Shown here piece after piece: positions 1,088 to 46,371 of a stretch of DNA of 64,000 nt. The notes below the pieces were generated by a model. The model worked only from the letters and a program-made list of their open reading frames with translations, had not been told where the DNA came from and made no database searches. Position numbers and translations under genes: made by a program. Origin of the DNA: an uncultured Candidatus Saccharibacteria bacterium (GTDB lineage: Bacteria; Patescibacteriota; Minisyncoccia; Phycocordibacterales; UBA12088); assembly GCA_964411375.1 (NCBI GenBank), contig CAYPKR010000001.1, positions 422,831-486,830 on the forward strand, written 5' to 3'. The stretch's first letter is position 1, and every line of letters starts with the position of its first letter.

Positions 1088-1939
1088 ATGGAGATGCGCG
1101 CATATTACAAAATGTTTTTCCTCACCTCTCTCTTGTTCGGAGCAATTGCGTTTATTCCGACTGTCCATGCGCAAGAGATTGGACTCGTGAGTGAACCAAC
1201 ATCGTCATCAACGACGCGAGTGAATGTCGTCTTTAATCCAAATAATGAAGCATTCAACGCTATTGATGTGACGATCGTCACTCCCAAAGAAGCGGTAGTA
1301 TCGGAAGTAACAAGTGCAGGAAGTGCGTTGTCGCTTTTTCCAGTACCACCGCAATACACTTCGGAGACAAGAACGATAACCATGACCGGAGGACTGCCTG
1401 GATCATTTGCGCTCTCTAAAGATTCTGTCCTCATGAGTTTTGTTGTCGTCACTAAACAATCTCTTACATTTCGTGTATCAGGAAACGCATATCGCGCAGA
1501 CGGGAAGGGAACAAAGCTTTCAATTCCGGTGCGCTCGATCGCTATTTCATCGTCCCCGGGAGACGCTACGCCATCGGCTCCCGACAATCTGGATCCGGTC
1601 ATGTCGGCGTATGTTGGTCGCGATGAATCGCTTTTTGGTGGCCGATATTATGTTGTTTGGTACGGATCAGATAATCGATCAGGTACCTTGCACTATCAAG
1701 TAAAAGAAGGTTGGTGGGGAACATTCCACGATGCTTCAGGATATTATATTGTGCAGGATCAATCACTTGGCGCCCCGGTATGGGTTCGCGCAACAGATGA
1801 AGCGGGGAATTCAACAACCGTTCTCGTGTCTGGTACCAACACATCACTCTTCATTCCCGGTGTCGGTCTCGCACTCATCTTAATCGCAATTGTTGGATTC
1901 ATCGTCCTCAAACGAAAGCGAAAAGTATCAGTACTATGA
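1088..1939 (+). CDS. Cell-surface protein with an N-terminal signal peptide, a cohesin-like beta-sandwich domain, a second Ig-like domain and a C-terminal TM anchor followed by a basic tail.
   Basis: Signal peptide MEMRAYYKMFFLTSLLFGAIAFIPTVHA. The cohesin-like pattern (VNVVF....AIDVTIV...LSLFPVP...TITMTGG) is paralogous to the N-terminus of the next ORF. C-terminal anchor LALILIAIVGFIVLKRKRK. Confidence 0.5.
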   Translation: MEMRAYYKMFFLTSLLFGAIAFIPTVHAQEIGLVSEPTSSSTTRVNVVFNPNNEAFNAIDVTIVTPKEAVVSEVTSAGSALSLFPVPPQYTSETRTITMTGGLPGSFALSKDSVLMSFVVVTKQSLTFRVSGNAYRADGKGTKLSIPVRSIAISSSPGDATPSAPDNLDPVMSAYVGRDESLFGGRYYVVWYGSDNRSGTLHYQVKEGWWGTFHDASGYYIVQDQSLGAPVWVRATDEAGNSTTVLVSGTNTSLFIPGVGLALILIAIVGFIVLKRKRKVSVL

Positions 1940-3393
1940 GCGCATGCGCAAAAAAAATATTTGAAATATCCCGCGTAGTATTCATTCTCTCTATATTTCT
2001 TTATAGTCTCCCGACAGTTGTTTCTGCGGCGACTCTCAGTATTTCACCTGCCGGAGCGGGAGTTACTTCGGGAGATCTCGCGACGATTCGTCTCGCGCTC
2101 GATTCGGGTGGTACTGCAATAAATAACGCGGAAGGCACGCTCCGATTTCCAGTAGATCTGCTCCGTGTTGTTTCGATATCAAAATCCCCATCAATCTTCT
2201 CGCTCTGGGTTTCTGAGCCGGTATTTTCGAATACTGCGGGCACTATTTCATTTAATGGTGGAGTACCGTCTCCTGGATTTTCTGGATCAAACGGCACTGT
2301 CTTTACTGTTACGTTTGAAACAAAAAAAGTTGGCAGTGCAACTCTTTCAATTACTGATGCGTTTGTACGTGCAAATGATGGTGAGGGGACTAATGTACTA
2401 AATCAAGTATTTGGTGGAAGTATTTCGATTGCTCAGCCAAGCAGTGTGACGTCGCCTCCGAGTACTCCGCCGTCATCCAATATAGAATCAAAAGGAATTC
2501 AAATTTCTTCCGCGACACATCCTGACCAAACTCGGTGGTATCAAAATGGAGAGCCGATCTTTGGAGTTACTTTGCCAAGTAGTGCCACGCTGTTTGAAAT
2601 GAATATTTCGACCAGTAGTAAATCACTGGTATGGAATCCAGTTCCCAAACCGTATAGTTCGGTTTCAGTTGGAGAATTGGGAAGCGGCATATGGCATCTC
2701 TCGGTACGCGGAAAAACGGGCACGCTTAAAAATTCTCCTGCAACATATACTTTCCGTATCGATCGTACGTTGCCAACATTTGTCGATACCTCGTTCTCCT
2801 ATGACACGAAGAATAATCAGTTTCTCATAAATGCTATCGCAACCGATACTGATTCGGGAATCAAGGAATACACACTCCTTGTCGATTCGAGTAACCTACT
2901 CCATCTTCCAGAAAACGTATTTACCGAAGGTGTATATGCTATGGACGGAGGTTCAGTCGGAGCGCATCATGTGACGCTTTCGGCAATAGACGCTGCAGGT
3001 AATACTTCGACTATCAGCTCATCGTATGTAGTTCCCGCAAAGAGAGATACTGAATCTGGGGGTCTCAGTGGACTTATACTTTCGGTAATTGCCATAGTAA
3101 TTTTGTTGTCGGCCGCTGCACTCTTTGTAGCGCTTCGTACGTACCGAGCGGTGCATACTCGTGCCACACACATCGAATCTCACGTTCAGAAAGTAGTGCA
3201 TGATACCCATCACACACTCGTCGTATTTGGCAGACAATTGATTCAGGACATAGAAGCAATCAAGCGGGTCCAAAAAATACGCGGACTTTCTGCTGAGGAA
3301 AAAGAAACACTCCGTATGTTACTTCGAGAAACAGCGGTCTTGGAGCGCGAAGTCATCGAAAAAATACACCGAGTTGAGATGCGCGAGCGTTGA
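1936..3393 (+). CDS. Cohesin-domain surface protein with a signal peptide, cohesin, Ig-like domains, a C-terminal TM helix and a cytoplasmic coiled-coil tail.
   Basis: The start overlaps the stop of the previous gene (ATGA). Cohesin-like region: ATLSISPAGAGVTSGDLATIRLALDSGG...GTLRFPVDLLRVVSI...GTISFNGGV...ATLSITDAFVRANDGEG. TM helix LSGLILSVIAIVILLSAAALFVAL followed by a charged coiled-coil tail. Confidence 0.55.
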   Translation: MSACAKKIFEISRVVFILSIFLYSLPTVVSAATLSISPAGAGVTSGDLATIRLALDSGGTAINNAEGTLRFPVDLLRVVSISKSPSIFSLWVSEPVFSNTAGTISFNGGVPSPGFSGSNGTVFTVTFETKKVGSATLSITDAFVRANDGEGTNVLNQVFGGSISIAQPSSVTSPPSTPPSSNIESKGIQISSATHPDQTRWYQNGEPIFGVTLPSSATLFEMNISTSSKSLVWNPVPKPYSSVSVGELGSGIWHLSVRGKTGTLKNSPATYTFRIDRTLPTFVDTSFSYDTKNNQFLINAIATDTDSGIKEYTLLVDSSNLLHLPENVFTEGVYAMDGGSVGAHHVTLSAIDAAGNTSTISSSYVVPAKRDTESGGLSGLILSVIAIVILLSAAALFVALRTYRAVHTRATHIESHVQKVVHDTHHTLVVFGRQLIQDIEAIKRVQKIRGLSAEEKETLRMLLRETAVLEREVIEKIHRVEMRER

Positions 3394-3542: not shown

Positions 3543-4166
3543 ATGGAAGAAGTAGGGATGATGTCGAAGAAGGGGATGATGGGAAATAAGTGGACGAAGC
3601 TCGCGATCATTGTCGCAGTCCTTCTCGTCGTTGGAGCAGCGCTCTATATGATGCGCAGTTATTTTGTTGCGGCAACTGTTGATGGTGCACCGATTAGCAG
3701 ATGGAGTGTTATGAAAGAAGCAGAGAAACAGTCAGGAAAGGCCATCTTGGATTCCATGATCACTCAGAAACTTGTTGAAAAGGCACTGGATGAAGCAAAG
3801 GTGACTGTATCAAATGACGAAATTAATACAGAGCTCGCAAAAATCGAAGATCAATTGAAGAGCAGCGGCATGTCTCTTGATGATGCGCTCAAGGCACAAG
3901 GAATCACCAAGGAAGATTTGGTAAAGCAAATCAAAACGCAGAAGCGCGCAGAGAAGTTGCTCTCCGATAAACTTAGCGTTAGCGATGATGAAATCAAAAA
4001 GTACATTAGCGATAATAAATTGACTGCACCGCAAGGTACATCAGAAGCAGATTTCAAGACACAAGTTGCTGATGGACTTAAGGGACAGAAATTTAGCGCC
4101 GCTGCAGCTGACTGGGTAAATACTCTTCAGGCAAAAGCAAAGATCACTCGCTACGTTTCGTACTAA
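3543..4166 (+). CDS. Periplasmic chaperone-like protein containing only a SurA N-terminal domain, with an N-terminal membrane anchor.
   Basis: TM anchor WTKLAIIVAVLLVVGAALYMM is followed by AATVDGAPISRWSVMKEAEKQSGKAILDSMITQKLVEKAL, typical of the SurA/PpiD N-terminal chaperone domain. No PPIase domain is present. Confidence 0.45.
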   Translation: MEEVGMMSKKGMMGNKWTKLAIIVAVLLVVGAALYMMRSYFVAATVDGAPISRWSVMKEAEKQSGKAILDSMITQKLVEKALDEAKVTVSNDEINTELAKIEDQLKSSGMSLDDALKAQGITKEDLVKQIKTQKRAEKLLSDKLSVSDDEIKKYISDNKLTAPQGTSEADFKTQVADGLKGQKFSAAAADWVNTLQAKAKITRYVSY

Positions 4167-5246: not shown

Positions 5247-5550
5247 TGGAGAATTGAAATAAAGAAATACAAACCTTCACTCGTCAAATAGTGGAATGAA
5301 AAATAAAAATGCACGATTGACACTCGCACATTTTTATTTTTGGCTCTGATTTTTCGGAGTTATACCACGCTTGTGAACACCTTGTCCCCATACTTACAAA
5401 CAGTTTGGGGAGTTTTTACACTTGCGAGAAAAAGTGCAGTGCTACAATTTTTTCGTCACCTTTGCCAAGGATGCCTAATTGCAAAGGGAAGATCACGACG
5501 AAATGTATCTAACTGCGACGAACTGTTCCCCGCGTTCGGCAGGCTTTCAA

Positions 5551-5603
5551 AAAAGAGCTGCTTTTTGTTGCGCACCATTTGCGCGATAAAAAGCAGCTCT
5601 CTT
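5551..5603 (+). promoter_or_regulatory. Large near-perfect inverted repeat (stem-loop) about 100 nt upstream of the first TasA-like gene.
   Basis: AAAAGAGCTGCTTTTT (5551-5566) pairs with AAAAAGCAGCTCTCTTT (5587-5603). The ~20 nt loop contains a nested GCGC...GCGC mini-hairpin. It lies in the 5' leader region of the gene cluster. Confidence 0.4.
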
Positions 5604-5701
5604 TGTATTTGGACGGAGTGCGCATGATGGTCGAGCATATGCGCGCCTTGTCCAAAGGGGGCGACGAAATTATTAGATTATCAATTAATTCACAGTCAAT
5701 T

Positions 5702-6580
5702 ATGAAAAGAATCGTTATGAGTTTGGGCGCAATCGTGTTTGTCGCTGCAGTTGCAGTCGGCGCAACCGGCGCGTTCTTCAATGATACAGAGACTTCGACT
5801 GGCAACACCTTCACCGCAGGCGCAATCGACCTCAGGGTTGATTCAACCCAGCACTACAACAACGCAGTTTGCGTGGTTGGACAAGCAAGCTCGACATGGC
5901 AGCTTGCACCGGGTGCGGTACTTGCGATTGACCAGTATCCAGTGATCGGCTCTCCGTGCGATGGCACATGGGCACTTACGGATCTCGGTCCAACATTCCA
6001 CTTCTTTAACTTCGGCGATGTAAAGCCTGAAGATCAGGGAGAGGACACGGTATCACTCCACATCGACAATAACCCCGCATGGGCATGCGCATACATCAAG
6101 ACAACTGGAAACAATGAGAATTCACTCATCGAACCAGAAGCAAGCGCAGGCGATGTAACCAATGATCCAAATGGCGGCGAGCTTGCGCAGAATATCCATG
6201 TATTCGCATGGCTCGACAACGCATCAACCTCAGGCGCTGTTGCCGGTGACAACATCTGGCAGGCAGGAGAATCAGTTCTCCAGACTCCCGTTGCACTCTC
6301 TGCACTTAATGCAACAACCACACTCACTCTTGCTGATGGTGGCACGGGCAATCCACTTCCAGGTGGCTCAACAAGCTACATCGGTCTCGGATGGTGCGCA
6401 GGTACGCTTAACGCAAGCATTCCAGGTTCATGGACTTGCGATGGTTCAACCATGGGCAATGAAACCCAGACTGACTCAGCAACCACGTCCGTATCCTTCT
6501 ACGTAGAGCAGGCTCGCAACAATGCAGATTTCCGCTGCGTTCCACAGGTAGAGGAAGTTGTTCCTAATCAACCCGAATAA
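5702..6580 (+). CDS. TasA/camelysin-like secreted protein with a SipW-cognate signal peptide (paralog 1).
   Basis: Start chosen at MKRIVMSLGAIVFVAAVAVGATGAFFNDTETSTGNTFTAGAIDLRVD, the hallmark SipW-cognate class signal and TasA N-terminus (AFFxDxExSxGNxFxAGxxDL). The upstream part of the 5579 ORF lies in an intergenic hairpin region. Confidence 0.7.
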   Translation: MKRIVMSLGAIVFVAAVAVGATGAFFNDTETSTGNTFTAGAIDLRVDSTQHYNNAVCVVGQASSTWQLAPGAVLAIDQYPVIGSPCDGTWALTDLGPTFHFFNFGDVKPEDQGEDTVSLHIDNNPAWACAYIKTTGNNENSLIEPEASAGDVTNDPNGGELAQNIHVFAWLDNASTSGAVAGDNIWQAGESVLQTPVALSALNATTTLTLADGGTGNPLPGGSTSYIGLGWCAGTLNASIPGSWTCDGSTMGNETQTDSATTSVSFYVEQARNNADFRCVPQVEEVVPNQPE

Positions 6581-7480
6581 GAATTAGATAATTCCCCGAT
6601 ATGAAAAAAATTCTGATTGGTGCCGCATCAATCGTACTCGTTGCCGCTGCAGCAGTTGGCGCAACTGGCGCATTTTTCTCCGATTCCGAAACGTCATCGG
6701 GAAATGTGTTCACTGCCGGCGCGATCGATCTCACCGTCGATTCAACGCAGCATTATAACAATGCAGTGTGTGTGATCGGTCCCGAGATTTCTTCGTGGCA
6801 GCTTGCGCCGGGCGCAGTTGAAGCGGGCGATCAGTATCCGGTAATCGGTTCTCCGTGCGATGGCACATGGGCTGAGACCAACCTTGGTCCAACGTTCCAT
6901 TTCTTCAACTTCGGCGATGTAAAACCTGCCGATCAAGGAGAAGACACGATATCACTCCATATCGAAAACAATTCGGCATGGGTATGTGCGTACATCAAAA
7001 CGACTGGCGACAATGAAAACGGCATCAACAATCCTGAATCAAAATCAGGAGATGTGACGAACGATCCATCGGGTGGCGAACTCGCAGAAAATATTCACGT
7101 ATTCGCATGGCTCGATAACGGTGTCGGCGGCGTGGATGACTCACGCCAAGCGGGCGACAACATCTGGCAGGCTGATGAACCAATACTCCAAGCTCCGCTT
7201 TCCTTAAGCGCCTTGAACGCAACGACGACGCTTACTCTTGCTGACTCAACAACCGGAAATGGTCCGCTTGCTGGCGGTACGACAAGTTTCATTGGTCTCG
7301 GATGGTGCGCAGGCACGCTTGTTGTAAATGGTCCCGGGAGCTGGTCATGCGATGGTTCAACCATGGGCAATGACACGCAGACCGATTCAGCAACAACATC
7401 TGTTTCATTTTACGTAGAGCAATCTCGTAATAACGCAAACTTCCGCTGTTCAAATGCAACGCTCGTTCATGTAACCGCAA
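5702..7480 (+). repeat. Tandem gene duplication: the ~880 bp N-terminal coding regions of TasA-like paralogs 1 and 2 are about 75-80% identical at the nucleotide level.
   Basis: Aligned stretches include GGCGCAATCGACCTCAGGGTTGATTCAACCCAGCACTACAACAACGCAGT versus GGCGCGATCGATCTCACCGTCGATTCAACGCAGCATTATAACAATGCAGT. Protein identity is near-complete across ~290 aa. Confidence 0.55.
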
Positions 7481-8142
7481 ATGATCTCGATCCAAATGGT
7501 CCGAACCCAGCAACGGTTCGACTCGATGGACTCGACAAGTGGTTCATGTACAACGACACGAATGACACTGTCGACAACACGCTCGGTACATTTGTTGCAG
7601 GACCAGGAACGCCGCCGTTTGGCGCAAACAGCATCCAGTTTGTACTTGCCGCAAGTCCGCTGGATCGAAAGAATATCGCGACGTATCAGTTTGCAGGAAC
7701 GCCACTCTCTTCGATCACCGAAATGAAGTACGGCGCGTACTCGCACTCGGGTGTTGCTGGACCGAATGAATCTCCGTATCTCAATTTCAACATTGATTTC
7801 ACGGGAAGCTCAGTCGTATTCCAGAAGCGCATCGCATACGTTCCAAGTCAAAATGGTGGAGTTCCGCAAGACACGTGGAACTCATTCGATACGATACAAA
7901 GCGGCAACGCGAAGTGGGTATATTCCGGCGCAACATGGCCAGCACCAAACGCGATTCCAGGAACGTCGCCAAAAACGTGGACCCAGATTCTTGCTGACTA
8001 TCCAAGCGCTCGGATTCTTCCAAGCGACAGCTGGCTTGGCATCCGCGTCGGCGAGCCAGGTCCAACCGGCTACATCGGTAATGTCGACTTCTTCACTATC
8101 GCAACGTCATCCGGACCGACGACGTACGACTTCGGAAATTAA
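6601..8142 (+). CDS. TasA/camelysin-like secreted protein with a SipW-cognate signal (paralog 2) and an extra ~220 aa C-terminal domain of unknown function.
   Basis: MKKILIGAASIVLVAAAAVGATGAFFSDSETSSGNVFTAGAIDLTVD. The first ~290 aa are near-identical to paralog 1, including DTVSLHIDNN/DTISLHIENN and SFYVEQ(A/S)RNNA(D/N)FRC. Confidence 0.7.
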   Translation: MKKILIGAASIVLVAAAAVGATGAFFSDSETSSGNVFTAGAIDLTVDSTQHYNNAVCVIGPEISSWQLAPGAVEAGDQYPVIGSPCDGTWAETNLGPTFHFFNFGDVKPADQGEDTISLHIENNSAWVCAYIKTTGDNENGINNPESKSGDVTNDPSGGELAENIHVFAWLDNGVGGVDDSRQAGDNIWQADEPILQAPLSLSALNATTTLTLADSTTGNGPLAGGTTSFIGLGWCAGTLVVNGPGSWSCDGSTMGNDTQTDSATTSVSFYVEQSRNNANFRCSNATLVHVTANDLDPNGPNPATVRLDGLDKWFMYNDTNDTVDNTLGTFVAGPGTPPFGANSIQFVLAASPLDRKNIATYQFAGTPLSSITEMKYGAYSHSGVAGPNESPYLNFNIDFTGSSVVFQKRIAYVPSQNGGVPQDTWNSFDTIQSGNAKWVYSGATWPAPNAIPGTSPKTWTQILADYPSARILPSDSWLGIRVGEPGPTGYIGNVDFFTIATSSGPTTYDFGN

Positions 8143-8163
8143 TCCAATTCACGGTAGAAACTC

Positions 8164-9489
8164 ATGAAAAAAATCCTCTTAAGCCTCGGATCCATCCTCT
8201 TCGTCGGCGCACTCTTGGCCGGCGGGACGGGCGCATTCTTGGCTGATTCGGGGAAGTCAACGGGAAATACATTCGCGAGCGGCGTCATCAATCTCAAAGT
8301 CGATAACGAAAGTTATGTCACCGACAATTGGGGCAAACTTATCTTCTCGACATCGACATCGTGGAATCTCTCTAATCTGGAAGGAAAATTATTCTTTAAT
8401 TTTCTCGACCTGAAACCGGGAGATATTGGCGAAGACACCATCTCGCTCCATGTGAACAACAATAACGCATGGGCGTGCATGAACGTAAGTGTGACGGCAA
8501 CGCCTGAAAATGGTCAGCCTGAACCAGAAGCCGCAGTGGATCCGACGGTCGGATCAAACGACGGCGAACTGCAGAATTATCTCCAGTTTGTATTCTGGGC
8601 AGATGATGGCGACAACGTCTTTGAAAAAGGAGAAGACGTTTTCAAAAAAGGATTGGTCAAAGATATTTTCAACGGAAAAAATTGGCCGATTGCCGATTCG
8701 AAGAACAATATCTGGAGCCAAAATGGTCCGCTCCTTCCGGAATATACCTACTACATCGGCAAAGCATGGTGCTTTGGAACAATGACCGAAGTACCGCTTC
8801 CGCAGGATGGGTTTAGTAAGAAGGGAAACAACGGACCTCTGCAGCGCGGAACCGGATTCACGTGTTCAGGCGTCGATGTTGGAAATATCGTGCAGTCTGA
8901 CGGAATTAAGGCAGATGTCTCATTCGCAGTCGCACAAGCACGAAATAATAATTCGTTCCTGTGTTCCGACGGAGGAGATCCAAAAAATCCGCCAACCGGA
9001 ACGTCCACAATATTTAGCGACAACTTCGAGAGTTACCAGAATGGGCATCGATGTGATGACGGCAAGGATGATAAAAATTGGGATCAACAGGGTGGCGTGA
9101 AGTTTGTATCGCTTGGCGGAGTACACAGCAAAGTTGCTGATCTCCAGAGCTCATCGGCAAACAATCACAAAGTCGTCATGATTTCATCCGGCATCAATTT
9201 GACTGGCTTCCACAACGTCACGCTTTCATACGATCGAAAGCTTGATGATGTTGATGCGCCGCCAGTTGGGACACAGAATTTGCTCGTCGAATTCAGTACA
9301 AACGGTGGGGGTTCATGGACAACACTTGAAAATGTTTCGGGTGAAGTAGATTGGACGACGAAGTCCTTCTCACTCTCGCCGAGTGCTGACAACAAGTCGA
9401 ATGTAAAACTTAGATTTACCTTTACGGGACAGGATGGTTCAAATCACGCATATATCGACAACGTGGTTGTAACCGCCGTCACTCCGTAA
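8164..9489 (+). CDS. TasA/camelysin-like secreted protein with a SipW-cognate signal (paralog 3) and a C-terminal beta-rich domain.
   Basis: MKKILLSLGSILFVGALLAGGTGAFLADSGKSTGNTFASGVINLKVD. Shares the motifs ISLHVNNNNAWAC, FVFWADDGDNVFEKGE and YIGKAWCFG with paralog 4. Confidence 0.65.
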   Translation: MKKILLSLGSILFVGALLAGGTGAFLADSGKSTGNTFASGVINLKVDNESYVTDNWGKLIFSTSTSWNLSNLEGKLFFNFLDLKPGDIGEDTISLHVNNNNAWACMNVSVTATPENGQPEPEAAVDPTVGSNDGELQNYLQFVFWADDGDNVFEKGEDVFKKGLVKDIFNGKNWPIADSKNNIWSQNGPLLPEYTYYIGKAWCFGTMTEVPLPQDGFSKKGNNGPLQRGTGFTCSGVDVGNIVQSDGIKADVSFAVAQARNNNSFLCSDGGDPKNPPTGTSTIFSDNFESYQNGHRCDDGKDDKNWDQQGGVKFVSLGGVHSKVADLQSSSANNHKVVMISSGINLTGFHNVTLSYDRKLDDVDAPPVGTQNLLVEFSTNGGGSWTTLENVSGEVDWTTKSFSLSPSADNKSNVKLRFTFTGQDGSNHAYIDNVVVTAVTP

Positions 9490-9524
9490 ATTTGAAAGCT
9501 TTTATTAGTTACTGAAACGCAGTT

Positions 9525-10955
9525 ATGAAAAGAATTCTCGGAAGCCTCACTGTCCTCACCGCCGTCGGGCTTCTTGCCATCGGTGCGACCGGAGCATTCT
9601 TCTCGGACTCGGAAGTCTCGAGCGCAAATACATTTGCCGCTGGAGCAATCGATCTCAAAATCGACAATCACGGTTACTATAATCACAACGAATGTAAGGA
9701 AGTAACCGCCGGAGTATTTCAGTGGGTTGGGCAAGCTGATTTCCCAGTCCCTGGAACTTCCTGCAGTGATTCGTGGAGTGTGACCGATCTTACGATCCAG
9801 AAGTTCTTCGATTTCACTGACATAAAGCCGGGCGATACCGGGGAAGATACAATTTCGCTTCATGTGAGCAACAACGACGCGTACATGTGCGCCAATGTGA
9901 AATTGACGTCAAACGACGACAATGGACTCACTGAACCGGAAGGGCAGATTGATCCAACTGATGGACCAGGAAATGGTGAACTCGCATCAAATGTAAACTT
10001 CGTGTGGTGGGCAGATGACGGCGACAATGTTCTTGAAGATAACGAAAAGGTTATCTCACAAGGACCAATCGGCGCGCTCGGATTAAACGGCTCGACAACC
10101 GTTCCGCTTGCCGACTCACAGAATAATATTTGGACGGGAACTCCAGGTCCGGTGCCGGGAGATCAAACACTCTACATCGGCAAAGCGTGGTGCTTTGGAA
10201 ACATCGGTGCTGCTCCTCTTGTACAAGATGGACTTGGCACGACGTCTCCACGCACTCCTGGAAATTCAACGGGTGGAATCACCTGCGATGGGCACTTGCT
10301 CGACAACTCAACGCAGACAGATAGTTTGACCGCAGATGTTACCTTTACCGCAGTTCAAGCTCGTCATAATTCTGATTTCCTCTGCACTCCACCAGTGCGC
10401 GAAAGTGGAGATTTGATCGTGACGAAAGTAGTCGTAAATAACAACGGCGGCAACAATGTCGTGAACGATTTCCATCTCTTTGTTGACGATGGATTTGTCT
10501 CGACTGCAATCATCTCTGGTGCAACGACTACGCTTCCTGCTGGAACATACAGCGTGAATGAAAGTGGAGATTCTGGTTACCAGGCTTCATTCTCCGGCGA
10601 TTGTGATCAAGATGGAAATGTTACGGTCACAAATGGTGGTGTAAAACATTGCACCATCACGAATACCGAACTTCCTGCGCACATCACGCTTACGAAAGTC
10701 GTGATTAATCATGGAGGAACGGCAACACCAAATTCCTTCACGATGCGCATTGATGGGGGTGCGAAAGTACCAAGTGGTTCATCAGTCGCTGTTACTTCAA
10801 ACGCACTTCACTCAATCAATGAAGATGCAAAGACGGGATATCACTTCGTCTCGATTACCGGCAGTCCAAAATGTCCGGCAGTCTTAGGCGGCACTGCAAT
10901 GCTTGATGAAGGTGAAACGATTTCGTGCACCATCACCAACGAGCAGAACCAATAG
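9525..10955 (+). CDS. TasA/camelysin-like secreted protein with a SipW-cognate signal (paralog 4) and two C-terminal CnaB/prealbumin-fold-like repeats.
   Basis: MKRILGSLTVLTAVGLLAIGATGAFFSDSEVSSANTFAAGAIDLKID. The C-terminus has two ~90 aa repeats (LIVTKVVVNNNGGNNVVNDFHLFVDDG...TYSVNESGDSGY and ITLTKVVINHGGTATPNSFTMRIDGG...GYHFVSITGSP). Confidence 0.65.
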   Translation: MKRILGSLTVLTAVGLLAIGATGAFFSDSEVSSANTFAAGAIDLKIDNHGYYNHNECKEVTAGVFQWVGQADFPVPGTSCSDSWSVTDLTIQKFFDFTDIKPGDTGEDTISLHVSNNDAYMCANVKLTSNDDNGLTEPEGQIDPTDGPGNGELASNVNFVWWADDGDNVLEDNEKVISQGPIGALGLNGSTTVPLADSQNNIWTGTPGPVPGDQTLYIGKAWCFGNIGAAPLVQDGLGTTSPRTPGNSTGGITCDGHLLDNSTQTDSLTADVTFTAVQARHNSDFLCTPPVRESGDLIVTKVVVNNNGGNNVVNDFHLFVDDGFVSTAIISGATTTLPAGTYSVNESGDSGYQASFSGDCDQDGNVTVTNGGVKHCTITNTELPAHITLTKVVINHGGTATPNSFTMRIDGGAKVPSGSSVAVTSNALHSINEDAKTGYHFVSITGSPKCPAVLGGTAMLDEGETISCTITNEQNQ

Positions 10956-10961
10956 ATTCAA

Positions 10962-12416
10962 ATGAAATTGATCTTCGCTACAATCCGATACTTGTTAATC
11001 GGAGGAGTCGTTCTCCTAACGCTCCTTCTTCTTGGCACACTCATGCCAATTCAAGGTGGGATAAAAGTGAAGATTGTGAAGTCTGGTTCGATGGAACCGA
11101 CGATTATGACGGGTTCGATTGTCATTATCAAACCCGAACCCGCATATTCGATCGGCGACATCATCACCTTCGGCAAAGATACCAAGACACAAATTCCGAC
11201 CACGCACCGCATTGTTGCGGTTTCGGGGTCGGGAGCATCGAGCGAGTTCCAAACAAAAGGGGACGCGAATGATGCTCCCGATCCGGTAGCAACTCGCATG
11301 AGTGATATTTCTGGAAAAGTAATTTTCCACGCATCCTACATCGGCTACATTCTTGATTTTGCGAGAAAGCCTCTCGGCTTCGCGCTTATTGTCGGCGTTC
11401 CAGCATTCGCAATCATTTTGGACGAGGTTATGAAGATAGTTGCAGAAGTCCGCCGTATGAGACGAGAGAAACGGAAAGCTGCTCCAGTTGTTCGTACAGA
11501 GGAAATTGCTCCGCCTCCACCACCACCAACTCCGCGCCGAAACGTTTCGTCTGATGGGATTATGAAAATGCAGCCTCCAGTTAGGGAGCCCGAGCATTTT
11601 CTAAAAACAGAACCGAAGGAGTCACATATATATGTAAAATCATTTACCGCAATGTTGTTTATTGTGGGTTCGCTTGCTGGAATTTCGTCAATCGGCGGGA
11701 CGAAAGCGTACTTCAATGATGTAGAAGTATCGATTGGCAATTTACTCAAAGCCGGACTCGTATCTCTCGTCATTTCAACCGACAATGATACCCTTGGTCG
11801 CGCCGCATTTGTACAAACACTCGATGCATCATCAAGCAACGAGACAAATAATGGAGAAACTCCCCCGAAGGAAGAATATGCAATTGGTAGTGATTTATTT
11901 TCAATCGATATTAATAAAGGAGATCAAAGTTTCCCACTGCAATATACGATTACACCAAAACTCGACGATGATGCGCCAAATGGTTGTAAGGAAATGACGC
12001 TTGAAGCATGGATCGGCGATTTTCACTGGAGTGGATTACTTACCGATTTCAATCTTCCTGCCACAACAACACTCGGACACCTGCAATTTTTGCTCACGAT
12101 TCCGGTACCAAATACACTCGCACCAAATGCTGAGTGTGGCGGCGCACTTATCTTCAAAGCCGGAATTGCCGGTGCACCGGATCCTTTGAAGCATGTATTT
12201 TCAGACACCAAAGAATATCGATTTGAAATTTTGAATAGTGAAACTACTCCAAGTGAGGAAGAAACTACAGAAGCGGATCAAGAATCTGGTAATCCAACCG
12301 AACCTAGTGCGTCCTCGAATGAGGCAGAAAATGCCAGCACTTCACCAGTCGGGGGAGAGGAAGCTCCCGCGGCAGAGGCAATTGATGGCTCTGTAGAGGC
12401 TCAAATAGAAGAATAA
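10962..12416 (+). CDS. sipW: Type I signal peptidase of the SipW (S26B, archaeal/ER-like) class. The same reading frame continues through a poly-Pro linker and a TM segment into a TasA-like domain.
   Basis: N-terminal TM segment, then KIVKSGSMEPTIMTGSIVIIKPEP (the catalytic Ser box, SGSMEPT) ...THRIVAV...KGDANDAPD (SipW C-box). After a second TM (PLGFALIVGVPAFAIIL) and PPPPPPTPRR, there is a third hydrophobic segment followed by GGTKAYFNDVEVSIGNLL, a SipW-cognate/TasA-like N-terminus. No stop codon separates the two parts. Confidence 0.7.
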   Translation: MKLIFATIRYLLIGGVVLLTLLLLGTLMPIQGGIKVKIVKSGSMEPTIMTGSIVIIKPEPAYSIGDIITFGKDTKTQIPTTHRIVAVSGSGASSEFQTKGDANDAPDPVATRMSDISGKVIFHASYIGYILDFARKPLGFALIVGVPAFAIILDEVMKIVAEVRRMRREKRKAAPVVRTEEIAPPPPPPTPRRNVSSDGIMKMQPPVREPEHFLKTEPKESHIYVKSFTAMLFIVGSLAGISSIGGTKAYFNDVEVSIGNLLKAGLVSLVISTDNDTLGRAAFVQTLDASSSNETNNGETPPKEEYAIGSDLFSIDINKGDQSFPLQYTITPKLDDDAPNGCKEMTLEAWIGDFHWSGLLTDFNLPATTTLGHLQFLLTIPVPNTLAPNAECGGALIFKAGIAGAPDPLKHVFSDTKEYRFEILNSETTPSEEETTEADQESGNPTEPSASSNEAENASTSPVGGEEAPAAEAIDGSVEAQIEE

Positions 12417-12498
12417 GGCGACGACAACCGACATAGTTGACTTTTTCTAATATTAGTTTTACTATGCTCGAAGCTCCAATACGCGGAGCCCCGGTTCA

Positions 12499-12942
12499 AT
12501 GAGAAAGAAGGGAATAGCGATAGTAGTCAGTATAACTGCGCTCGTAGCAGTTTTTATTTTGTATGTAGAGCGCAGCGCGCTGTACGCCACTTTGGATTCG
12601 CTTCACCTTATTCCTCACGAAGAACCGCTGACGGAGTTGTATTTTGAATCACCACTCCCGACGCTCCGCACCATCGGTGCAGATGATCGTACTTCGTTTT
12701 CTTTCACCATCCATAACTTGGAAGGAAGAGGAATGAACTACGAATATCACGTGTATGCGGTAACAACGAATGGTACGACGACCATTGAGCGCGGTTCGGT
12801 AAGTGTTCGAGCACTCGAATATGTTACGAGAAAGGAATCAATCCTTTTTGTAAAAGCGACACCGCAAGCAGAAATTTTTGTCGAATTACTTCCGCCGATC
12901 AATGAAATGATTCATTTCAAACTCATACGTACCGGCACATAA
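12499..12942 (+). CDS. Small membrane-anchored hypothetical protein.
   Basis: N-terminal TM IAIVVSITALVAVFILYV followed by a beta-rich soluble domain. No recognisable motifs. It sits at the head of the glycosyltransferase operon. Confidence 0.35.
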   Translation: MRKKGIAIVVSITALVAVFILYVERSALYATLDSLHLIPHEEPLTELYFESPLPTLRTIGADDRTSFSFTIHNLEGRGMNYEYHVYAVTTNGTTTIERGSVSVRALEYVTRKESILFVKATPQAEIFVELLPPINEMIHFKLIRTGT

Positions 12943-12969: not shown

Positions 12970-13728
12970 ATGGCAGTTCCCCGCCAAAAAATTACCGCAC
13001 TCATCCCATGCTACAACGAAGCAGAGGGTATTAAATCTGTGATCGAAAGTTTTCCGCTCGCGGAACTCAATCAATATGGTTTTGATGTTGAAATCGTTAT
13101 TATCGATAATAATTCAACGGACGGTACCGCCGCGATTGCTCGCTCTCTTGGTGCAACAGTGATTCATGAGCCGAAAAAAGGAAAGGGAAATGCAATGCGC
13201 ACCGGATTTTTCTCAATATCTGATGACACGGATTTTGTCGTGATGCTCGACGGTGACGACACCTATCGTCCGGAAGAAATTCTTCGAATGGTTGAACCGC
13301 TTAAAGCTGGATTTGCCGATGTCATCATTGGATCTCGCCTCAGCGGTAAGATCAAAGAAGGTTCCATGAAAGGACTGAATCGTCTTGGCAACTGGACGTA
13401 TTCATTTTTAGTGCGCATTTTCTATCAAGTAAATGTCACAGACGTACTGACTGGATATTTTGCATGGAAAACAGAAGCACTTGAACGTCTTCGTCCACAT
13501 TTGCACTCCGAAGGTTTTGCAATCGAGATGGAAATGGTTACCAAAATGGCACGACTTGGCCAGGAAATCTATTCGGTACCAATCAGCTATCACCCACGTG
13601 CTGGCGAGAGTAACTTGAGCCCAATCTATGATGGTGCACGCATCATGACTATGTTCACCAAAAATCTCTTCTGGAGCCCTGTACCATGGAGATTCTTCCG
13701 TCCTCGCTTCTTCCGCAGGGGCGCCTAG
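12970..13728 (+). CDS. Family 2 glycosyltransferase, dolichyl-/polyprenyl-phosphate sugar transferase-like.
   Basis: ALIPCYNEAEGI, VIIDNNSTDGTAAIA and MLDGDDTY (DxD) motifs of GT2/GT-A. Confidence 0.75.
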   Translation: MAVPRQKITALIPCYNEAEGIKSVIESFPLAELNQYGFDVEIVIIDNNSTDGTAAIARSLGATVIHEPKKGKGNAMRTGFFSISDDTDFVVMLDGDDTYRPEEILRMVEPLKAGFADVIIGSRLSGKIKEGSMKGLNRLGNWTYSFLVRIFYQVNVTDVLTGYFAWKTEALERLRPHLHSEGFAIEMEMVTKMARLGQEIYSVPISYHPRAGESNLSPIYDGARIMTMFTKNLFWSPVPWRFFRPRFFRRGA

Positions 13729-13738
13729 AAGAAAGTGC

Positions 13739-15568
13739 ATGAAAATTGTTTCCGTATCACATTACTACACCCCGCATATCGGCGGACTCGAAATCGTCGC
13801 ACGTAAGTTGGCGCGCAGTTTGACTGCTTCCGGCCACGAGGTTTCGATTGTCACTTTTAAAACTGATCCTATTCCAAGCGTGTCAGTAGAAGAGGGCGTG
13901 ACTGTATATCGTGTTCGCGGTCTCAATTTTTTTGATACCTATTTTGGTATCCCGTTTCCAATTGGCGGAATCGGACTTTTTTCAAGACTCTTTCGTGAGA
14001 TACAAACTGCAGACGCGGTGCACCTCCATGATGTTTTTTATCAGTCGTCTTGGATCGCCTATTTTTTTGCCAGGCTTTTGGGAAAGCCGCTCATTCTGAC
14101 TCAACACGTTGGAATAGTTGAACATCCAAGCGCTATCGTTATGGGGATTCAGAAAGCAGTCTATCGCGCGATTGGACGAATGATTTTTGCGTTCGCTGAA
14201 ACTATTATTGTATACAACCGAAATGTCCGTACCTTCTTGGAAAAAGAAGGGGTGCCAACGGGGAAAATTATCGAACTTCGAAATGGAATCGACACGAATA
14301 CATTCTGTCCAATTGATAGAGCACTTCGAAAAGAGAAGCGTCAGGCGCTCGGGCTTCCCGCGGACCGTCCACTCGCGCTTTTTGTTGGTCGCTTTGTGCC
14401 GAAGAAAGGATTTACCGAAGTATATGGCGCGCGTGATCCAAAATATGATCTAGTTTTTGTTGGAAGTGGTAATTTTCCCGAGGAATACAAAAAAACTAAC
14501 GGTGTCTATTGTCTGGGACCAAAAAACCAAACAGAACTCGCTCTAATCTACCCGCTCGTCGATTTCTTTGTATTTCCTTCAAAAGGAGAAATGTTTACGC
14601 TGGTGATGCAGGAGGCGATGGCAGCAGGACTTCCTATTGTCACCACCAATGAACCTGGCTATGCGGAATATAATCTCGATCAAACACTTATCACATTTGT
14701 TGAGCCAAAAGCAGAATCTCTCAAAACGACAATGACTAAACTGGTTGATGATCCGGAACTGCTCCAAAAAATGGGTGCGTACTCGCGCGCACTTGCGGTT
14801 GAGCGATTTGATTGGGATACCAATATTAGTCCACTACTTTCAATCTATGCGGATATTGCCAAAAGAAAGAGGGTAATCGTTACGACAAGTTGGGACGATG
14901 GTCATATTCTTGATCTCAAGCTCGCAGATCTTCTTCGAAAATATTCCGTAGGTGGAACATTTTATATTTCGCCTCGCGATCATGAAATTATTCCGGAAAA
15001 GCGTCTCTCGAATGAGCAAATCAGAAGTCTCCTTCCGGATTTTGAAATTGGTGCGCACACGATGACCCATCGCCCGCTTCCAACTATTTCGGATGATGCG
15101 GCAAACGAGGAAATTATTACTTCCAAAAAATATCTTGAGGAAGTAATTGGAGGACCGGTCACGAGCTTTTGTTACCCACGCGGTGAATACACACCGACAC
15201 ATGCAATAATGACGAAGCAGGCCGGCTTTCACCTTTCGCGCACGGTTGCTCGTTTTTCATACGACACTGGTTCAAATCCATTTGAACTTCCGACTTCAGT
15301 TCATACGTACGATCACTTCTCTGATGTTTGGGGTGTACTTCGCCTTGCAAAATTCAATCCAATGCGTTTCTTGAAGTTGTATCGCAACTGGGAAGCACAA
15401 GCGATCGCTATGTTTGATGCAGTCTCAAAACGCGGCGGCATATTCCATTTGTGGGGACACAGTTGGGAAGTAGACGATCATAATGATTGGAATCGACTTG
15501 AGCGAGTACTTCAGTATGTCGGGGGCAGGGCGAATGTTTCGTATGTAGCGAACAGAGAACTGGTATGA
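13739..15568 (+). CDS. Bifunctional protein: GT4 glycosyltransferase fused to a polysaccharide deacetylase (NodB-homology) domain.
   Basis: The N-terminus is GT4-like (HYYTPHIGGLE ... EAMAAGLPIVTT). The C-terminal ~230 aa carry VIVTTSWDDGHILDLKLADLL (the NodB motif TxDDG) and HTMTHRPL (His-His metal site). Confidence 0.75.
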   Translation: MKIVSVSHYYTPHIGGLEIVARKLARSLTASGHEVSIVTFKTDPIPSVSVEEGVTVYRVRGLNFFDTYFGIPFPIGGIGLFSRLFREIQTADAVHLHDVFYQSSWIAYFFARLLGKPLILTQHVGIVEHPSAIVMGIQKAVYRAIGRMIFAFAETIIVYNRNVRTFLEKEGVPTGKIIELRNGIDTNTFCPIDRALRKEKRQALGLPADRPLALFVGRFVPKKGFTEVYGARDPKYDLVFVGSGNFPEEYKKTNGVYCLGPKNQTELALIYPLVDFFVFPSKGEMFTLVMQEAMAAGLPIVTTNEPGYAEYNLDQTLITFVEPKAESLKTTMTKLVDDPELLQKMGAYSRALAVERFDWDTNISPLLSIYADIAKRKRVIVTTSWDDGHILDLKLADLLRKYSVGGTFYISPRDHEIIPEKRLSNEQIRSLLPDFEIGAHTMTHRPLPTISDDAANEEIITSKKYLEEVIGGPVTSFCYPRGEYTPTHAIMTKQAGFHLSRTVARFSYDTGSNPFELPTSVHTYDHFSDVWGVLRLAKFNPMRFLKLYRNWEAQAIAMFDAVSKRGGIFHLWGHSWEVDDHNDWNRLERVLQYVGGRANVSYVANRELV

Positions 15569-17796
15569 GCACAGAAACCCGCACAATAGCGATCGTCTCC
15601 CCATACTTTCCGCCAGCCGCTGGCGGTCTTGAACGATATGCATCCGAGATTGCAAATCTTCTCCATACAGAACATGGATACCGCATCGTTGTCCTAACTT
15701 CAGGAGAAAAGGGAGGTGCGGATGTTCAAGAAGTAAGAGACGGCTATACGGTGTATCGACTCGGCTATTCGTTTAAAGTATCGAACACGCCGTTTTCATT
15801 CGCATGGTTTGGAAAGGTGCGACGAATTTTACAAAAAGAATCACCGGATGTTGTTCATATTCATACACCAGTTCCAGGAATCGGTGATATTGCCGCATTT
15901 TTTGCGCGAGTACCCGTTGTTGTGACCTATCACGCAAGTACCATGCGAAAAGGAAAGGGTAATAGTATCGTAAACATGATTATCGCGGGATACGAAAAGA
16001 TACTGCTTCCGTTTCTTCTTAGTAAGGCAGAAAAAATCATTTGCGCGTCCGACTTTATTCGCGACGACTTTCTCAGTGCATACAAAGAAAAAAGTATCAC
16101 TCTCACACCTGGTGTATATCCAGAGCATTTCACCCCAAACGCATTTTTGAAATCAAAATCACCAACTATTCTTTTTGTTGCTGGACGCATTGGCCGAACT
16201 GATACCTATAAAGGACTCGATACCCTTCTTGATGCGATGGCGCTCGTTTCAAAAAAGGTGCCAAGTGCACGGCTCGTTGTCGTTGGAGACGGCGACATGC
16301 TCTATGAATATGAAATGCGCGCAGAGCGACTCACCCCAGGCATTGTTTCCTTTACGGGTACGCTCCATGGAGAAATGTTGACGGCTGAATATCAAAAAGC
16401 ACATGTGCTTGCGCATCCATCGAGAAATGAAAGTTTCGGTATGGTTATTCTTGAAGCAATGGCGACCGAACTTCCCGTTGTCGCAACGAATGTCGGTGGA
16501 ATTCCAACGCTTCTTCAGGACGGAAAAACAGGTTTCCTCGTTCCTCCAGGTAATTCTGAAATGCTCGCCGAAAAATTGATCGAAGTACTTACTGATCATG
16601 AGCTTTCTGCCGCGCTTGGCAAAAACGGACGACTCCGTGCAATCGAAAACTATTCATGGAGTGGTCGCGCAACTACATATCACACTATATTTGAATCGTT
16701 CATTCGTCCGGAGATTGTGCATGCCGTCGGATATTATCCACCGCATATCGGTGGAATGGAGCGTGTCGCCGAAACCATCTCAAAACTTCTCGCAAAAGAT
16801 AATTGGCGAGTCCGTGTACTAACTTCGAACGGCTCACTTAGAGGTGAAGTGGAGCGGAGTGAAAACCTCGTCGTCAAAAGACTTGCGTCATTTGAGTTTG
16901 CACATACACCAATTGCACCAAGCCTTCCTTTTCACCTTTTTTCAATTTCAAAGAGAAGCATCATTCACCTACATCTCTCGCAGGCATTTTGGCCGGAATG
17001 GATTCTTCTTGTTTCAAAACTTCGGGGCATTCCGTACGTGCTACACCTGCATCTCGATGTAGCGCCGTCTGGCCCCCTTGGTCCACTCTTCCTCATCTAC
17101 AAAAAAATGATATGGGGTCCAGTAATCCGAAACGCATCGCTTGTTATCGCGTGTTCTGATGATCTTGCTCGTATGGCGGTCGAAGTATATGGAGCAAAGA
17201 AAACCAAACTTGAGATCATGCCAAACGCGGTAAATGATAATTTCTTTTCTGCTCGAGCCTATACGGTTCCTGCCGATCGTCTACGCTTGCTTTCAATTGG
17301 ACGACTTGCGCCACAGAAAAAAACAGAGCGTCTCGTCAAAATGATGCCGCTCCTCAAAATTCCCGCTGAATTAATTATTGCGGGAGACGGGGAAGATCGC
17401 GCTACGCTTGAGGCATTGGTTCGCGGCGAGAAAATTCCAAACGTCACATTTGTCGGTGAGAAAAATGATGCCGAGATGCGCGCTCTCCACGAGGCGGCAG
17501 ATGCATTTGTGATTGCGTCCGATAGGGAAGGACGTCCGCTCGCGGTTCTTGAAGCAATGGCGGCGGGGCTTCCCATTATTGCGTCTGATGTGGTAGGAAA
17601 TCATGAGCTCGTAGGGGGGGTAGGTATTCTTGTTTCTCCTCCAACCCCTGAAGCATTTGCGACCGCAATCAATACTCTTTGGCAAAATAAAGAGTCGTTG
17701 GAGACATTGTCGAAGCGAAGCGTAAAGCGGGCGAGTGAAGCAACGTGGGATTCGGTCATCCGACGTCTCGAAAATATATATACTACGCTCATATGA
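15565..17796 (+). CDS. Tandem double-GT4 glycosyltransferase.
   Basis: Two complete GT4 units, each ending in an EX7E-type donor motif region (EAMATELPVVATNVGG and EAMAAGLPIIASDVVG). The start overlaps the previous stop (ATGA). Confidence 0.75.
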   Translation: MSTETRTIAIVSPYFPPAAGGLERYASEIANLLHTEHGYRIVVLTSGEKGGADVQEVRDGYTVYRLGYSFKVSNTPFSFAWFGKVRRILQKESPDVVHIHTPVPGIGDIAAFFARVPVVVTYHASTMRKGKGNSIVNMIIAGYEKILLPFLLSKAEKIICASDFIRDDFLSAYKEKSITLTPGVYPEHFTPNAFLKSKSPTILFVAGRIGRTDTYKGLDTLLDAMALVSKKVPSARLVVVGDGDMLYEYEMRAERLTPGIVSFTGTLHGEMLTAEYQKAHVLAHPSRNESFGMVILEAMATELPVVATNVGGIPTLLQDGKTGFLVPPGNSEMLAEKLIEVLTDHELSAALGKNGRLRAIENYSWSGRATTYHTIFESFIRPEIVHAVGYYPPHIGGMERVAETISKLLAKDNWRVRVLTSNGSLRGEVERSENLVVKRLASFEFAHTPIAPSLPFHLFSISKRSIIHLHLSQAFWPEWILLVSKLRGIPYVLHLHLDVAPSGPLGPLFLIYKKMIWGPVIRNASLVIACSDDLARMAVEVYGAKKTKLEIMPNAVNDNFFSARAYTVPADRLRLLSIGRLAPQKKTERLVKMMPLLKIPAELIIAGDGEDRATLEALVRGEKIPNVTFVGEKNDAEMRALHEAADAFVIASDREGRPLAVLEAMAAGLPIIASDVVGNHELVGGVGILVSPPTPEAFATAINTLWQNKESLETLSKRSVKRASEATWDSVIRRLENIYTTLI

Positions 17797-23420: not shown

Positions 23421-23426
23421 CGGTAT

Positions 23427-41280: not shown

Positions 41281-41505
41281 TGATAGCCTTCTTTAGGCTA
41301 TCATTGTAGCTACAATTAAATATTGCCCCGCAAGGGGCTAAGACCTAAACCAATGACTTCGGTCACTGGCATGGTCCCAAATCGTAGTGCATAGAGAACC
41401 CGTCATTCAGGGCGTGCACTACGTTATCAGGGGAAACTCTGGTAGGGCCGCAAGGCCTCCTGGTGGCGGGCTTTGTGTTTTCCACCAGACACATTACCAA
41501 TGTAA
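41281..41505 (+). ncRNA. Candidate structured non-coding RNA of unassigned class.
   Basis: A dense series of hairpins: 8-bp stem GATAGCCT/AGGCTATC; GCCCC-GCAA-GGGGC (GNRA loop); TGAC-TTCG-GTCA (UUCG loop); GGCC-GCAA-GGCC (GNRA loop); 7-bp CTGGTGG/CCACCAG; and a 9-bp long-range pairing CGTAGTGCA/TGCACTACG. Stable GNRA/UUCG tetraloops occur only on the + strand reading. No ORF is supported here. Confidence 0.3.
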
Positions 41506-44703: not shown

Positions 44704-44822
44704 TGCCGTTTTGCCCATCGTACATATTGAATGAATCATCCATGCGTGCTACTATCCAATTACTTAGAATCTCTAAGTAAATTATTCAACTATTCGTCAA
44801 GTATCGTTGTAAATCATTTTTT

Positions 44823-46352: not shown

Positions 46353-46371
46353 TCGAATATCATATATCTAT

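Follow-up and report, generated by a model that had tools for sequence, protein, structure and literature searches.

A stretch of 64,000 nucleotides from an uncultured member of the Patescibacteria (the candidate phyla radiation, CPR; contig CAYPKR010000001.1, positions 422,831 to 486,830), referred to here as the window, carries a cassette of five consecutive genes on the plus strand at positions 5702-12416. On balance, with a leaning only somewhat beyond even, the five genes are read as an operon that is the Patescibacteria (Paceibacteria/Parcubacteria-type) version of tapA-sipW-tasA and would serve a surface fibre assembled by donor-strand exchange. Genes 1 to 4 encode four TasA-like subunits, and gene 5 encodes a signal peptidase that is fused to a fifth module with the same N-terminal motif. 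The reading starts from motifs, catalytic residues, predicted folds, synteny and the interchange of fused and split forms, all of which were observed.

The open reading frames (ORFs) of the four subunits start at positions 5702, 6601, 8164 and 9525, and the gaps between the five genes are 20, 21, 35 and 6 nucleotides. Subunit 1 (gene 1, 5702..6580; 292 amino acids [aa]) has a signal peptide (aa 1-24) and a core without C-terminal decoration. Subunit 2 (gene 2, 6601..8142; 513 aa) carries behind its core a C-terminal domain of about 230 aa (aa ~285-513), subunit 3 (gene 3, 8164..9489; 441 aa) consists of a TasA-like core and a beta-rich C-terminal domain, and subunit 4 (gene 4, 9525..10955; 476 aa) of a TasA-like core and two C-terminal SpaA_2 prealbumin-like domains. 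Gene 5 (10962-12416; 484 aa) holds the peptidase and the fifth module in a single reading frame. Its peptidase domain (10962..11486; aa 1-175) comprises transmembrane helix TM1, the catalytic domain with S43, H82 and D101/D107, and helix TM2. A basic, proline-rich linker (aa 176-219) and a third transmembrane helix (aa 220-243) follow at 11487..11708, and the fifth module, termed D (11709..12416; aa 250-484), contains the motif, a beta-sandwich and an acidic, disordered tail. The preliminary description of this DNA had claimed four adjacent genes with a SipW-cognate signal and a TasA N-terminus and, directly next to them, a peptidase of the SipW class (S26B); both claims agreed with the present analysis.

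The precursors encoded by genes 1 to 4 all begin with a short basic n-region and a hydrophobic stretch, followed by (V/I/G)G(A/G)TGA and then by F(F/L)xDxExSxGNxFxAGxI(D/N)L. When the whole 64 kb were scanned in six frames with the regular expression G-x-T-G-A-F-F-x-D...N-x-F, five copies were obtained, all of them within 5.7-11.8 kb. The fifth copy was located at aa 246-270 of gene 5, in frame with the peptidase and with no stop codon between. A hidden Markov model (HMM) of the motif, constructed from homologues, scored the five copies with 67, 63, 39, 55 and 18 bits (E 3e-19 to 7e-4). The model of the SipW-cognate signal, TIGR04088 (cutoff 19), gave 24.2 bits for gene 1, 20.0 for gene 2 and 20.5 for gene 4, while the signal and motif of subunit 3 were more divergent (GTGAFLADSGKSTGNTF). 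The five-member array of the preliminary description was thus recovered as five copies of the motif, but its fifth member lies in the peptidase ORF (aa 220-484) and is TapA-like rather than a TasA paralog.

In subunit 1 the predicted cleavage site is T-G-A↓F-F (the arrow marks the cut), and the donor-strand-like motif occupies aa 25-47. No other part of the protein is as conserved: 20 of the 26 family positions from 22 to 47 were conserved to at least 90%, compared with 77 of 266 elsewhere. Among 165 subunits of related loci, the residues T(-3), A(-1) and F(+1) were found in 100%, 99% and 97%, D(+4), E(+6) and S(+8) in 98%, 93% and 98%, and N(+11) and F(+13) in 100% and 95%, respectively. As judged from these alignments, the alternating conservation runs far beyond the needs of recognition by a signal peptidase. 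In TasA the donor strand is formed by the first 11 mature residues (28-38), which complete the next subunit (PMC9674648). In the AlphaFold2 (AF2) monomer model of subunit 1, residues 1-37 had predicted local distance difference test (pLDDT) values below 50, and a most conserved motif that stays unfolded in the model of the monomer lends indirect support to polymerisation by an N-terminal donor strand. The Asn-x-Phe spacing of the motif is the same as that of N35-x-F37 in the donor strand of BsaA, where E56 catalyses an intermolecular isopeptide bond between N35 and K74 (PMC11580942). K108 and E114 (KPGDxGE) were invariant in the CPR subunits; while the Lys and Glu partners of the lock are established in BsaA, these two residues are candidate partners of Asn(+11), proposed from their conservation.

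Significant similarity of the subunits to TasA at the sequence level was confined to the N-terminus. PF12389 (gathering score 22.5) matched genes 1, 2 and 4 with 24.1, 25.3 and 28.6 bits, covering only profile positions 4-51 of 196, and gene 3 remained below the gathering score with 18.0 bits. A reading of the subunits as camelysin metalloproteases was rejected, as only the signal region matches this family, and the metalloprotease-type name of PF12389 is itself regarded as a misidentification (PMC11580942). An hhalign comparison of the subunit family with an alignment of Bacillus TasA (53 members) was significant over the first 50 columns only (probability 94%, E 1e-7), a stretch that corresponds to the signal and the first strand. 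A search of the subunit-family profile against all PDB chains returned no TasA chain and only a chance match to Pvc7; the core could therefore not be placed from sequence alone.

A model of subunit 1 was calculated with AF2 on an alignment with 68 single-domain homologues and reached a pLDDT of 78 and a predicted TM-score (pTM) of 0.73. The cryo-EM structure of the TasA fibre (8AUR) was the only PDB match of its core in Foldseek at E<=1e-3 (E 1.9e-4), with a low TM-score of 0.30/0.37. By two methods the TasA fibre was the top structural match of the predicted core, followed by the archaeal AbpA and by thread subunits, and all of the best matches were subunits of donor-strand filaments. For the core of subunit 1, the check by structure prediction that had been suggested at the outset came out in favour of TasA. 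When the hhalign alignment was forced to extend (greedy mode), it remained collinear with TasA over 213 columns with low confidence, pairing FFNFGDVKPGD with FDLSNLKPGD and MGNxxQTDS....VEQ with VQNKxQGxS....EATQ. These motifs fall on the invariant K61-P-G-D and Q214/N215...E229-Q232 of TasA. Compared with TasA, the core is enlarged by an insertion of about 50 residues and has six cysteines that are conserved. On the predicted fold and these landmarks, the subunit core was taken as a divergent branch of the TasA superfamily. A DsbA-like thioredoxin (63088-63762, plus strand; PF13462, E 8e-27) is also encoded in the window and could be relevant to the six subunit cysteines, which presumably form disulfides.

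The cores of genes 1 and 2 are the closest pair, with identities of 77% (protein) and 72.5% (DNA), and the remaining pairs are 43-50% identical. The suggested tandem duplication of paralogs 1 and 2 fits their closeness, but at these identities it is not recent. Distinct C-terminal domains were found on genes 2 to 4, as expected from the preliminary description, which differed in their naming. For the domain of gene 2, proposed to belong to an unknown family, the 230 aa indeed gave no match in PDB or Pfam; gene 2 had 978 homologues, and those with a name were all from Patescibacteria. The domain of gene 3 is beta-rich as proposed, but in place of a lectin only a sub-threshold match to Reelin subrepeat B was obtained (PF21471, 23.4 bits against 27), which was weak in PDB too. 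The repeats of gene 4, described earlier as CnaB-like, matched PF19403 (SpaA_2, prealbumin-like) in two stretches with E 1.4e-11 and are not CnaB by name.

The N-terminal part of gene 5 scored 97.5 bits with TIGR02228, the model of the archaeal/endoplasmic reticulum (ER)-type signal peptidase I (cutoff 51.85). With NF046067, the equivalog model of Bacillus SipW, it reached 100.7 bits and remained below the cutoff of 190. By sequence the peptidase is thus a member of the SipW/Sec11 class (S26B) and not an equivalog of Bacillus SipW. The residues S43 (SGSMEP), H82 (HR) and D101/D107 (GDAN..D) were invariant across 57 homologues, in line with the catalytic Ser and His (no Lys) and the conserved Asp of Sec11-type enzymes, and the Ser, His and Asp motifs were aligned with those of human SEC11A (phmmer, 2.2e-6). 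With AF2, gene 5 was modelled at a mean pLDDT of 75, with a confident catalytic domain between helices at aa 2-27 and 137-173, and the top Foldseek match of the model was SEC11C/A (E 2e-5). From the synteny and the conservation of the site, it is inferred that the peptidase would cleave the neighbouring TasA-like precursors at T-x-A↓F.

Behind helix 2 of gene 5 follow the linker, helix 3 and then the sequence G-T-K-A249↓Y250-F-N-D-V-E-V-S-I-G-N-L-L-K-A-G; the donor-strand-like motif of the D module is YFNDVEVSIGNLLKAG. Since positive charges follow helix 2, the linker should be cytoplasmic, and helix 3 would therefore be oriented like a signal peptide with its cleavage site facing the catalytic domain. 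Helix 3 is predicted to act as an internal signal peptide, with cleavage between A249 and Y250. T247, Y250, E255, N260 and A264 were conserved among D modules. In the AF2 model the beta domain of D (aa ~305-425, two Cys) had pLDDT values of 94-97, while those of the motif and of the tail (aa 426-484, the last 59 residues, acidic and disordered) were below 50. The D family and the subunit family could be aligned by hhalign over 31 columns only, which comprise the cleavage site and the motif (probability 93%). Apart from peptidases, the top Foldseek matches of the beta domain were pilins and adhesins of chaperone-usher systems (E ~1e-3).

Across all variants of the fifth module, the cleavage/donor-strand motif was the only constant part, and in 8 of 70 loci the D module was found to consist of the motif and a low-complexity tail only. 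In some genomes a lamin-tail domain (PF00932; VINEFLPNPD...) replaces the beta-sandwich, and in some the motif is followed by an acidic low-complexity tail; examples of such variants are loci L017, L024, L028, L047 and L081 and proteins P0167, P0173 and P0196. TapA of Bacillus is thought to start the TasA filament (PMC10151520, PMC9674648). In TapA, residues 44-57 mimic the donor strand and are enough for activity, while the Ig fold is complete and unable to take up a strand and the tail can be dispensed with (PMC10151520). The D module may accordingly be called TapA-like by analogy of function and layout, not as a member of the TapA family; it is termed a functional analogue only because no homology to TapA was detectable.

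The state of the D module was determined for 82 peptidases, which were those of 81 related loci and of the window. In 31 the module was fused to the peptidase, in 40 it was encoded separately by a gene that overlaps or abuts the end of sipW, and in 11 it was not detected. On the peptidase tree this state changed at least 11 times, compared with a mean of 23 for shuffled states, and fused and separate forms had the same globular D domain. When 1.84 billion representatives were searched exhaustively, 35 relatives of the D-domain subtype of the window were obtained at E<=1e-10, of which 5 were fused. The others were mostly stand-alone proteins of 270-410 aa, with matches beginning near residue 40-70. 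In fused forms, T(-3) was present in 28 of 29 cleavage sites and a small residue at -1 in 27 of 29; in separate forms both were present in 36 of 36. Given this equal conservation and the interchange of fused and split states, the fused protein should be cut into the same mature products as those of two genes, and the gene 5 fusion is most likely cleaved by the peptidase, in cis or in trans. The 484-aa protein of gene 5 was identical in the NCBI and Logan assemblies, where the cassette proteins are recorded on a contig of 513,972 bp, so that the fusion is not an assembly artefact.

A scan for the peptidase motifs in one genome per GTDB species returned 80 loci, and all 80 were from Patescibacteria. 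Wherever the upstream sequence sufficed, one to four TasA-like genes were located directly upstream on the same strand, L039 being the single exception; of the 73 related loci that extend at least 1.5 kb upstream, 72 have the peptidase immediately behind TasA-like genes. This synteny bears out the term dedicated that had been applied to the peptidase. A frequent gene order was gene-1-like, gene-3-like, gene-4-like, sipW. Named homologues were found in Patescibacteria only (Minisyncoccia, Yonath-, Kaiser-, Moranii-, Zambryski- and Nomurabacteria). The genes flanking the cassette were not conserved across the related loci. Candidate chaperone and glycosylation genes of the flanks were kept only in the nearest relative, the syntenic locus L001, which was reached through the relative P0122, and in 0-5 of 81 loci. 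For this reason a SurA-N-like gene (3543-4166), a 344-aa gene, a small membrane protein (12499-12942) and the AglJ-like glycosyltransferase cluster were rejected as parts of the system. Because the flanking genes recur only in the closest relative, the functional unit was delimited to 5702-12416.

Like the cassette, tapA-sipW-tasA of B. subtilis (TasA, 8AUR; TapA, 6HQC) encodes an ER/archaeal-type peptidase beside its substrates. TasA has the same cleavage context (T-x-A↓ followed by F-x-D), the motif FNDxxxxxx(N/A)TFxxGxxDL and a jelly-roll/beta-sandwich core, and TapA is likewise an accessory protein in which nothing but the donor-strand motif is shared with the subunit, next to a beta-sandwich and a disordered tail. 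In contrast to the single subunit of Bacillus, there are four paralogs here, three of them with extra C-terminal domains, and their cores, with the insertion and the six cysteines, are alignable to TasA by profile at the N-terminus only. The genes are ordered subunits-sipW-D instead of tapA-sipW-tasA. The peptidase and the TapA-like module form one fusion protein, and this module lacks detectable homology to Bacillus TapA; the host, unlike Bacillus, is a wall-poor, ultra-small Patescibacterium. The sipW-bsaA-bsaB-bsaC operon of Clostridium perfringens (PMC11580942) also has SipW beside several TasA-like paralogs and SpaA-type domains in the neighbourhood, and heteropolymers formed by donor-strand exchange have been proposed for the BsaA/TasA family (PMC11580942). 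Here, however, sipW comes last instead of first, the binding domains are fused to the subunits and not supplied by a separate von Willebrand factor A (vWA) protein, and the peptidase is fused to the fifth module.

More distant systems share parts of this layout. The archaeal AbpA/AbpB pili (7UEG) and the Sulfolobus threads (7PNB) are donor-strand-complemented filaments as well, and AbpB has been put forward as a TapA-like initiator that bears distal adhesive domains. These archaeal filaments use the general signal peptidase without a dedicated enzyme in the operon, and they show no similarity to the cassette at the sequence level. Chaperone-usher pili (type 1 with FimH; CFA/I with CfaE) also link a major subunit to minor, decorated ones through donor strands, and the subunit incorporated first ends up at the tip. 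The D beta-sandwich matches their pilins and adhesins best among the non-peptidase hits, at E ~1e-3 and as an analogy only; unlike in these pili, a chaperone, an usher and an outer membrane are absent here.

On this basis a course of assembly can be proposed, in which cleavage, polymerisation, the role of an initiator and the adhesive function are inferred. The products of genes 1 to 4 would be exported through Sec, and the SipW/Sec11-type domain of gene 5 would cut the precursors after T-G-A24, exposing FFxDxExSxGNxFxAGxIDL. The exposed strand, which lies outside the fold of the monomer, would insert into the TasA-like core of the next subunit and give rise to a heteropolymer. Subunit 1 would be the plain building block, while subunits 2 to 4 would display binding-type domains (unknown, lectin-like and SpaA-like). 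The peptidase would also release its own C-terminal TapA-like module, in cis or in trans, and the released D module would donate its strand to the first subunit and start or cap the fibre at one end. If the fibre grew at the membrane, as proposed for BsaA, the D end would be the tip. The fusion would tie the supply of initiator to the peptidase, so that the initiator would be sub-stoichiometric and placed at the site of processing. In a bolder version, which is tentative and rather doubtful, gene 5 would be a self-processing peptidase-initiator polyprotein and would nucleate a heteropolymer that is decorated with adhesins, may be isopeptide-locked (N35-K108-E114) and serves Paceibacteria-type episymbionts as their organelle for host attachment. 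If true, one strand-donating tip or starter subunit would be made per peptidase molecule and freed where the subunits are processed.

Several observations weigh against the operon being a tapA-sipW-tasA version. Beyond the N-terminus, the subunit core has no significant profile alignment to Bacillus TasA. Of the models named for the HMM check in the preliminary description, TIGR04088 and PF12389 scored above their cutoffs for genes 1, 2 and 4, PF12389 over its N-terminal positions only, while gene 3 missed both models; it gave no match with TIGR04088, and the fifth module also remained below the cutoff of 19 with 15.8 bits. The top 50 Foldseek hits of the gene 5 model did not include TapA (6HQC), and the D beta-sandwich, being pilin-like in the model, could accept a strand and thus belong to an ordinary minor subunit. 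Some of the split states seen in metagenome bins may result from frameshift errors. Finally, the cytoplasmic linker of gene 5 contains two in-frame ATG codons (I-M-K-M, window 11562-11570; 11562/11568), which could allow the fifth module to be translated separately as an ordinary precursor, alongside the fusion. A rival view is that genes 1 to 4 encode non-polymerising secreted or surface proteins (adhesins, lectins or envelope proteins) that share only a SipW-type export signal, the motif serving peptidase recognition. Significant similarity to TasA is indeed limited to the signal region and the first strand, the C-terminal domains resemble binding modules, and BsaB of C. perfringens, a TasA paralog, forms no long oligomers (PMC11580942). 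However, the motif reaches about 23 residues beyond the cleavage site with the periodicity of a beta-strand and is unfolded in the monomer model, the top structural matches are donor-strand filament subunits without exception, and the fifth protein conserves this motif alone. Non-polymerising proteins are therefore considered quite unlikely.

The fusion could also remain uncleaved, with the tethered donor strand anchoring the base of the fibre and the peptidase doubling as a membrane anchor. The D module is covalently joined to a three-helix membrane protein, BsaA oligomers of C. perfringens are held in the membrane via an uncleaved signal peptide (PMC11580942), a wall-anchoring route like that of TapA is not known for Patescibacteria, and 7 of the 8 D modules that consist of motif and tail are fused forms. 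An uncleaved anchor is nevertheless unlikely, since the -3 Thr and the small -1 residue are equally conserved in fused and separate forms, the two states interchange repeatedly and the split module is an ordinary secretory precursor. Moreover, the motif begins about 3 residues past the helix and would leave little space for insertion into a partner while tethered. A housekeeping signal peptidase that is merely incidental beside abundant substrates, with a fusion due to neutral read-through or an assembly artefact, would be in keeping with the small genomes of Patescibacteria and with the finding that no LepB-type peptidase was present in the 64-kb window, a result which covers the window only; small shifts of frame within a low-complexity linker also separate the split from the fused forms. 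This explanation is very unlikely in view of the position of the peptidase directly after TasA-like genes in 72 of 73 loci with otherwise variable neighbours, of the identical fused ORF in two independent assemblies, and of the recurrence of the fusion, which was seen in 31 loci and, in the exhaustive search, in 5 of the 35 representatives.

Upstream of the cassette, a promoter-like site was read from the sequence at 5422..5448 on the plus strand (TTGCGA-15 nt-TGcTACAAT, with an extended -10). Its block CAGTGCTACAATTTT was invariant in the syntenic relative L001. The site was absent from the list of a generic promoter scan, which showed no promoter enrichment in the region, and the generic scan of the leader for promoters and terminators gave no enrichment over shuffles; the site is put forward only weakly as a promoter. 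Between this site and the ATG of gene 1, a hairpin with a perfect 21-bp stem and a subsequent U-rich tract was found at 5554..5610 (plus strand), about 100 nucleotides before the first ATG. It was listed by the terminator scan, had a fold energy of -35.6 kcal/mol (z = -6.7) and was kept in L001 with one compensatory change from T-A to C-G. A search of the 455-nucleotide leader before gene 1 against Rfam matched no family. The hairpin may be an attenuator that controls transcription of the fibre operon, or it may terminate transcription of the gene upstream.

The rest of the window fits a CPR genome that is rich in surface and glycan genes. A dockerin type I domain protein (89-1084, plus strand; E 2e-10) is followed, two genes further downstream, by a membrane-anchored surface protein of 485 aa that has OmpL47/DUF7743-like beta domains (1936-3393, plus strand), and together with the fibre cassette these genes form a neighbourhood rich in surface proteins. 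A glycan cluster (12970-24689), syntenic only in the closest relative, is located directly downstream of the cassette. It encodes an AglJ-like family 2 glycosyltransferase (GT2; TIGR04182, E 3e-58, below the cutoff), a DUF2206 membrane protein, a Wzx-like flippase and three large proteins with double family 4 glycosyltransferase (GT4) domains, one of which is fused to a polysaccharide deacetylase. It is conceivable that this cluster glycosylates the subunits of the fibre. A giant ORF of 2523 aa (29791-37362, plus strand) with an SpvB domain and FG-GAP repeats encodes a Tc-toxin/teneurin-like surface protein and is striking for a genome of about 0.5 Mb. A LOOT RNA (Rfam RF03000; 70.6 bits against 46.4) is located at 41342-41458 on the plus strand between the gene of a LexA-like S24 peptidase (40328-40990) and a 173-aa ORF, with a large serine recombinase (38002-39777, minus strand) and a ParB-N6/N4 DNA methylase (42463-43806, minus strand) nearby, and this region looks like an integrated mobile element carrying an orphan RNA. 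A GC-rich block at 44000-48600 (53-55%, compared with about 45% elsewhere) encodes two HlyD-type membrane-fusion proteins and a major facilitator superfamily (MFS) transporter and may have been acquired horizontally.

Operons with multiple TasA/BsaA paralogs, SipW and SpaA-domain neighbours have already been published together with the idea of a heteropolymer (PMC11580942), so that of the differences from known loci claimed in the preliminary description the expanded set of paralogs is not new. PF12389 homologues in Patescibacteria were noted in a survey of the AnnoTree database (PMC9245690), and this remark was the only literature found on TasA, SipW or camelysin together with CPR names. No description of this conserved CPR cassette was found in the searchable literature, and a search for SipW, fusion and donor strand revealed no description of a fusion between a signal peptidase and its substrate.

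Patescibacteria account for a large part of bacterial diversity, and they live attached to other cells. To our knowledge, their surface structures have hardly been described apart from type IV pili, and we know of no other attachment structure in Paceibacteria-type episymbionts. The cassette, with binding domains on its subunits, offers a concrete candidate system for attachment or for the formation of a matrix in Paceibacteria/Parcubacteria lineages, and with only five genes the system is amenable to heterologous expression. The fusion of peptidase and substrate would provide a natural system for studying how a fibre starts, the ratio of initiator to subunit, and the timing of SipW cleavage relative to strand exchange. 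The logic of tapA-sipW-tasA would be extended to a monoderm lineage far from the Firmicutes, which bears on the age of this fibre system.

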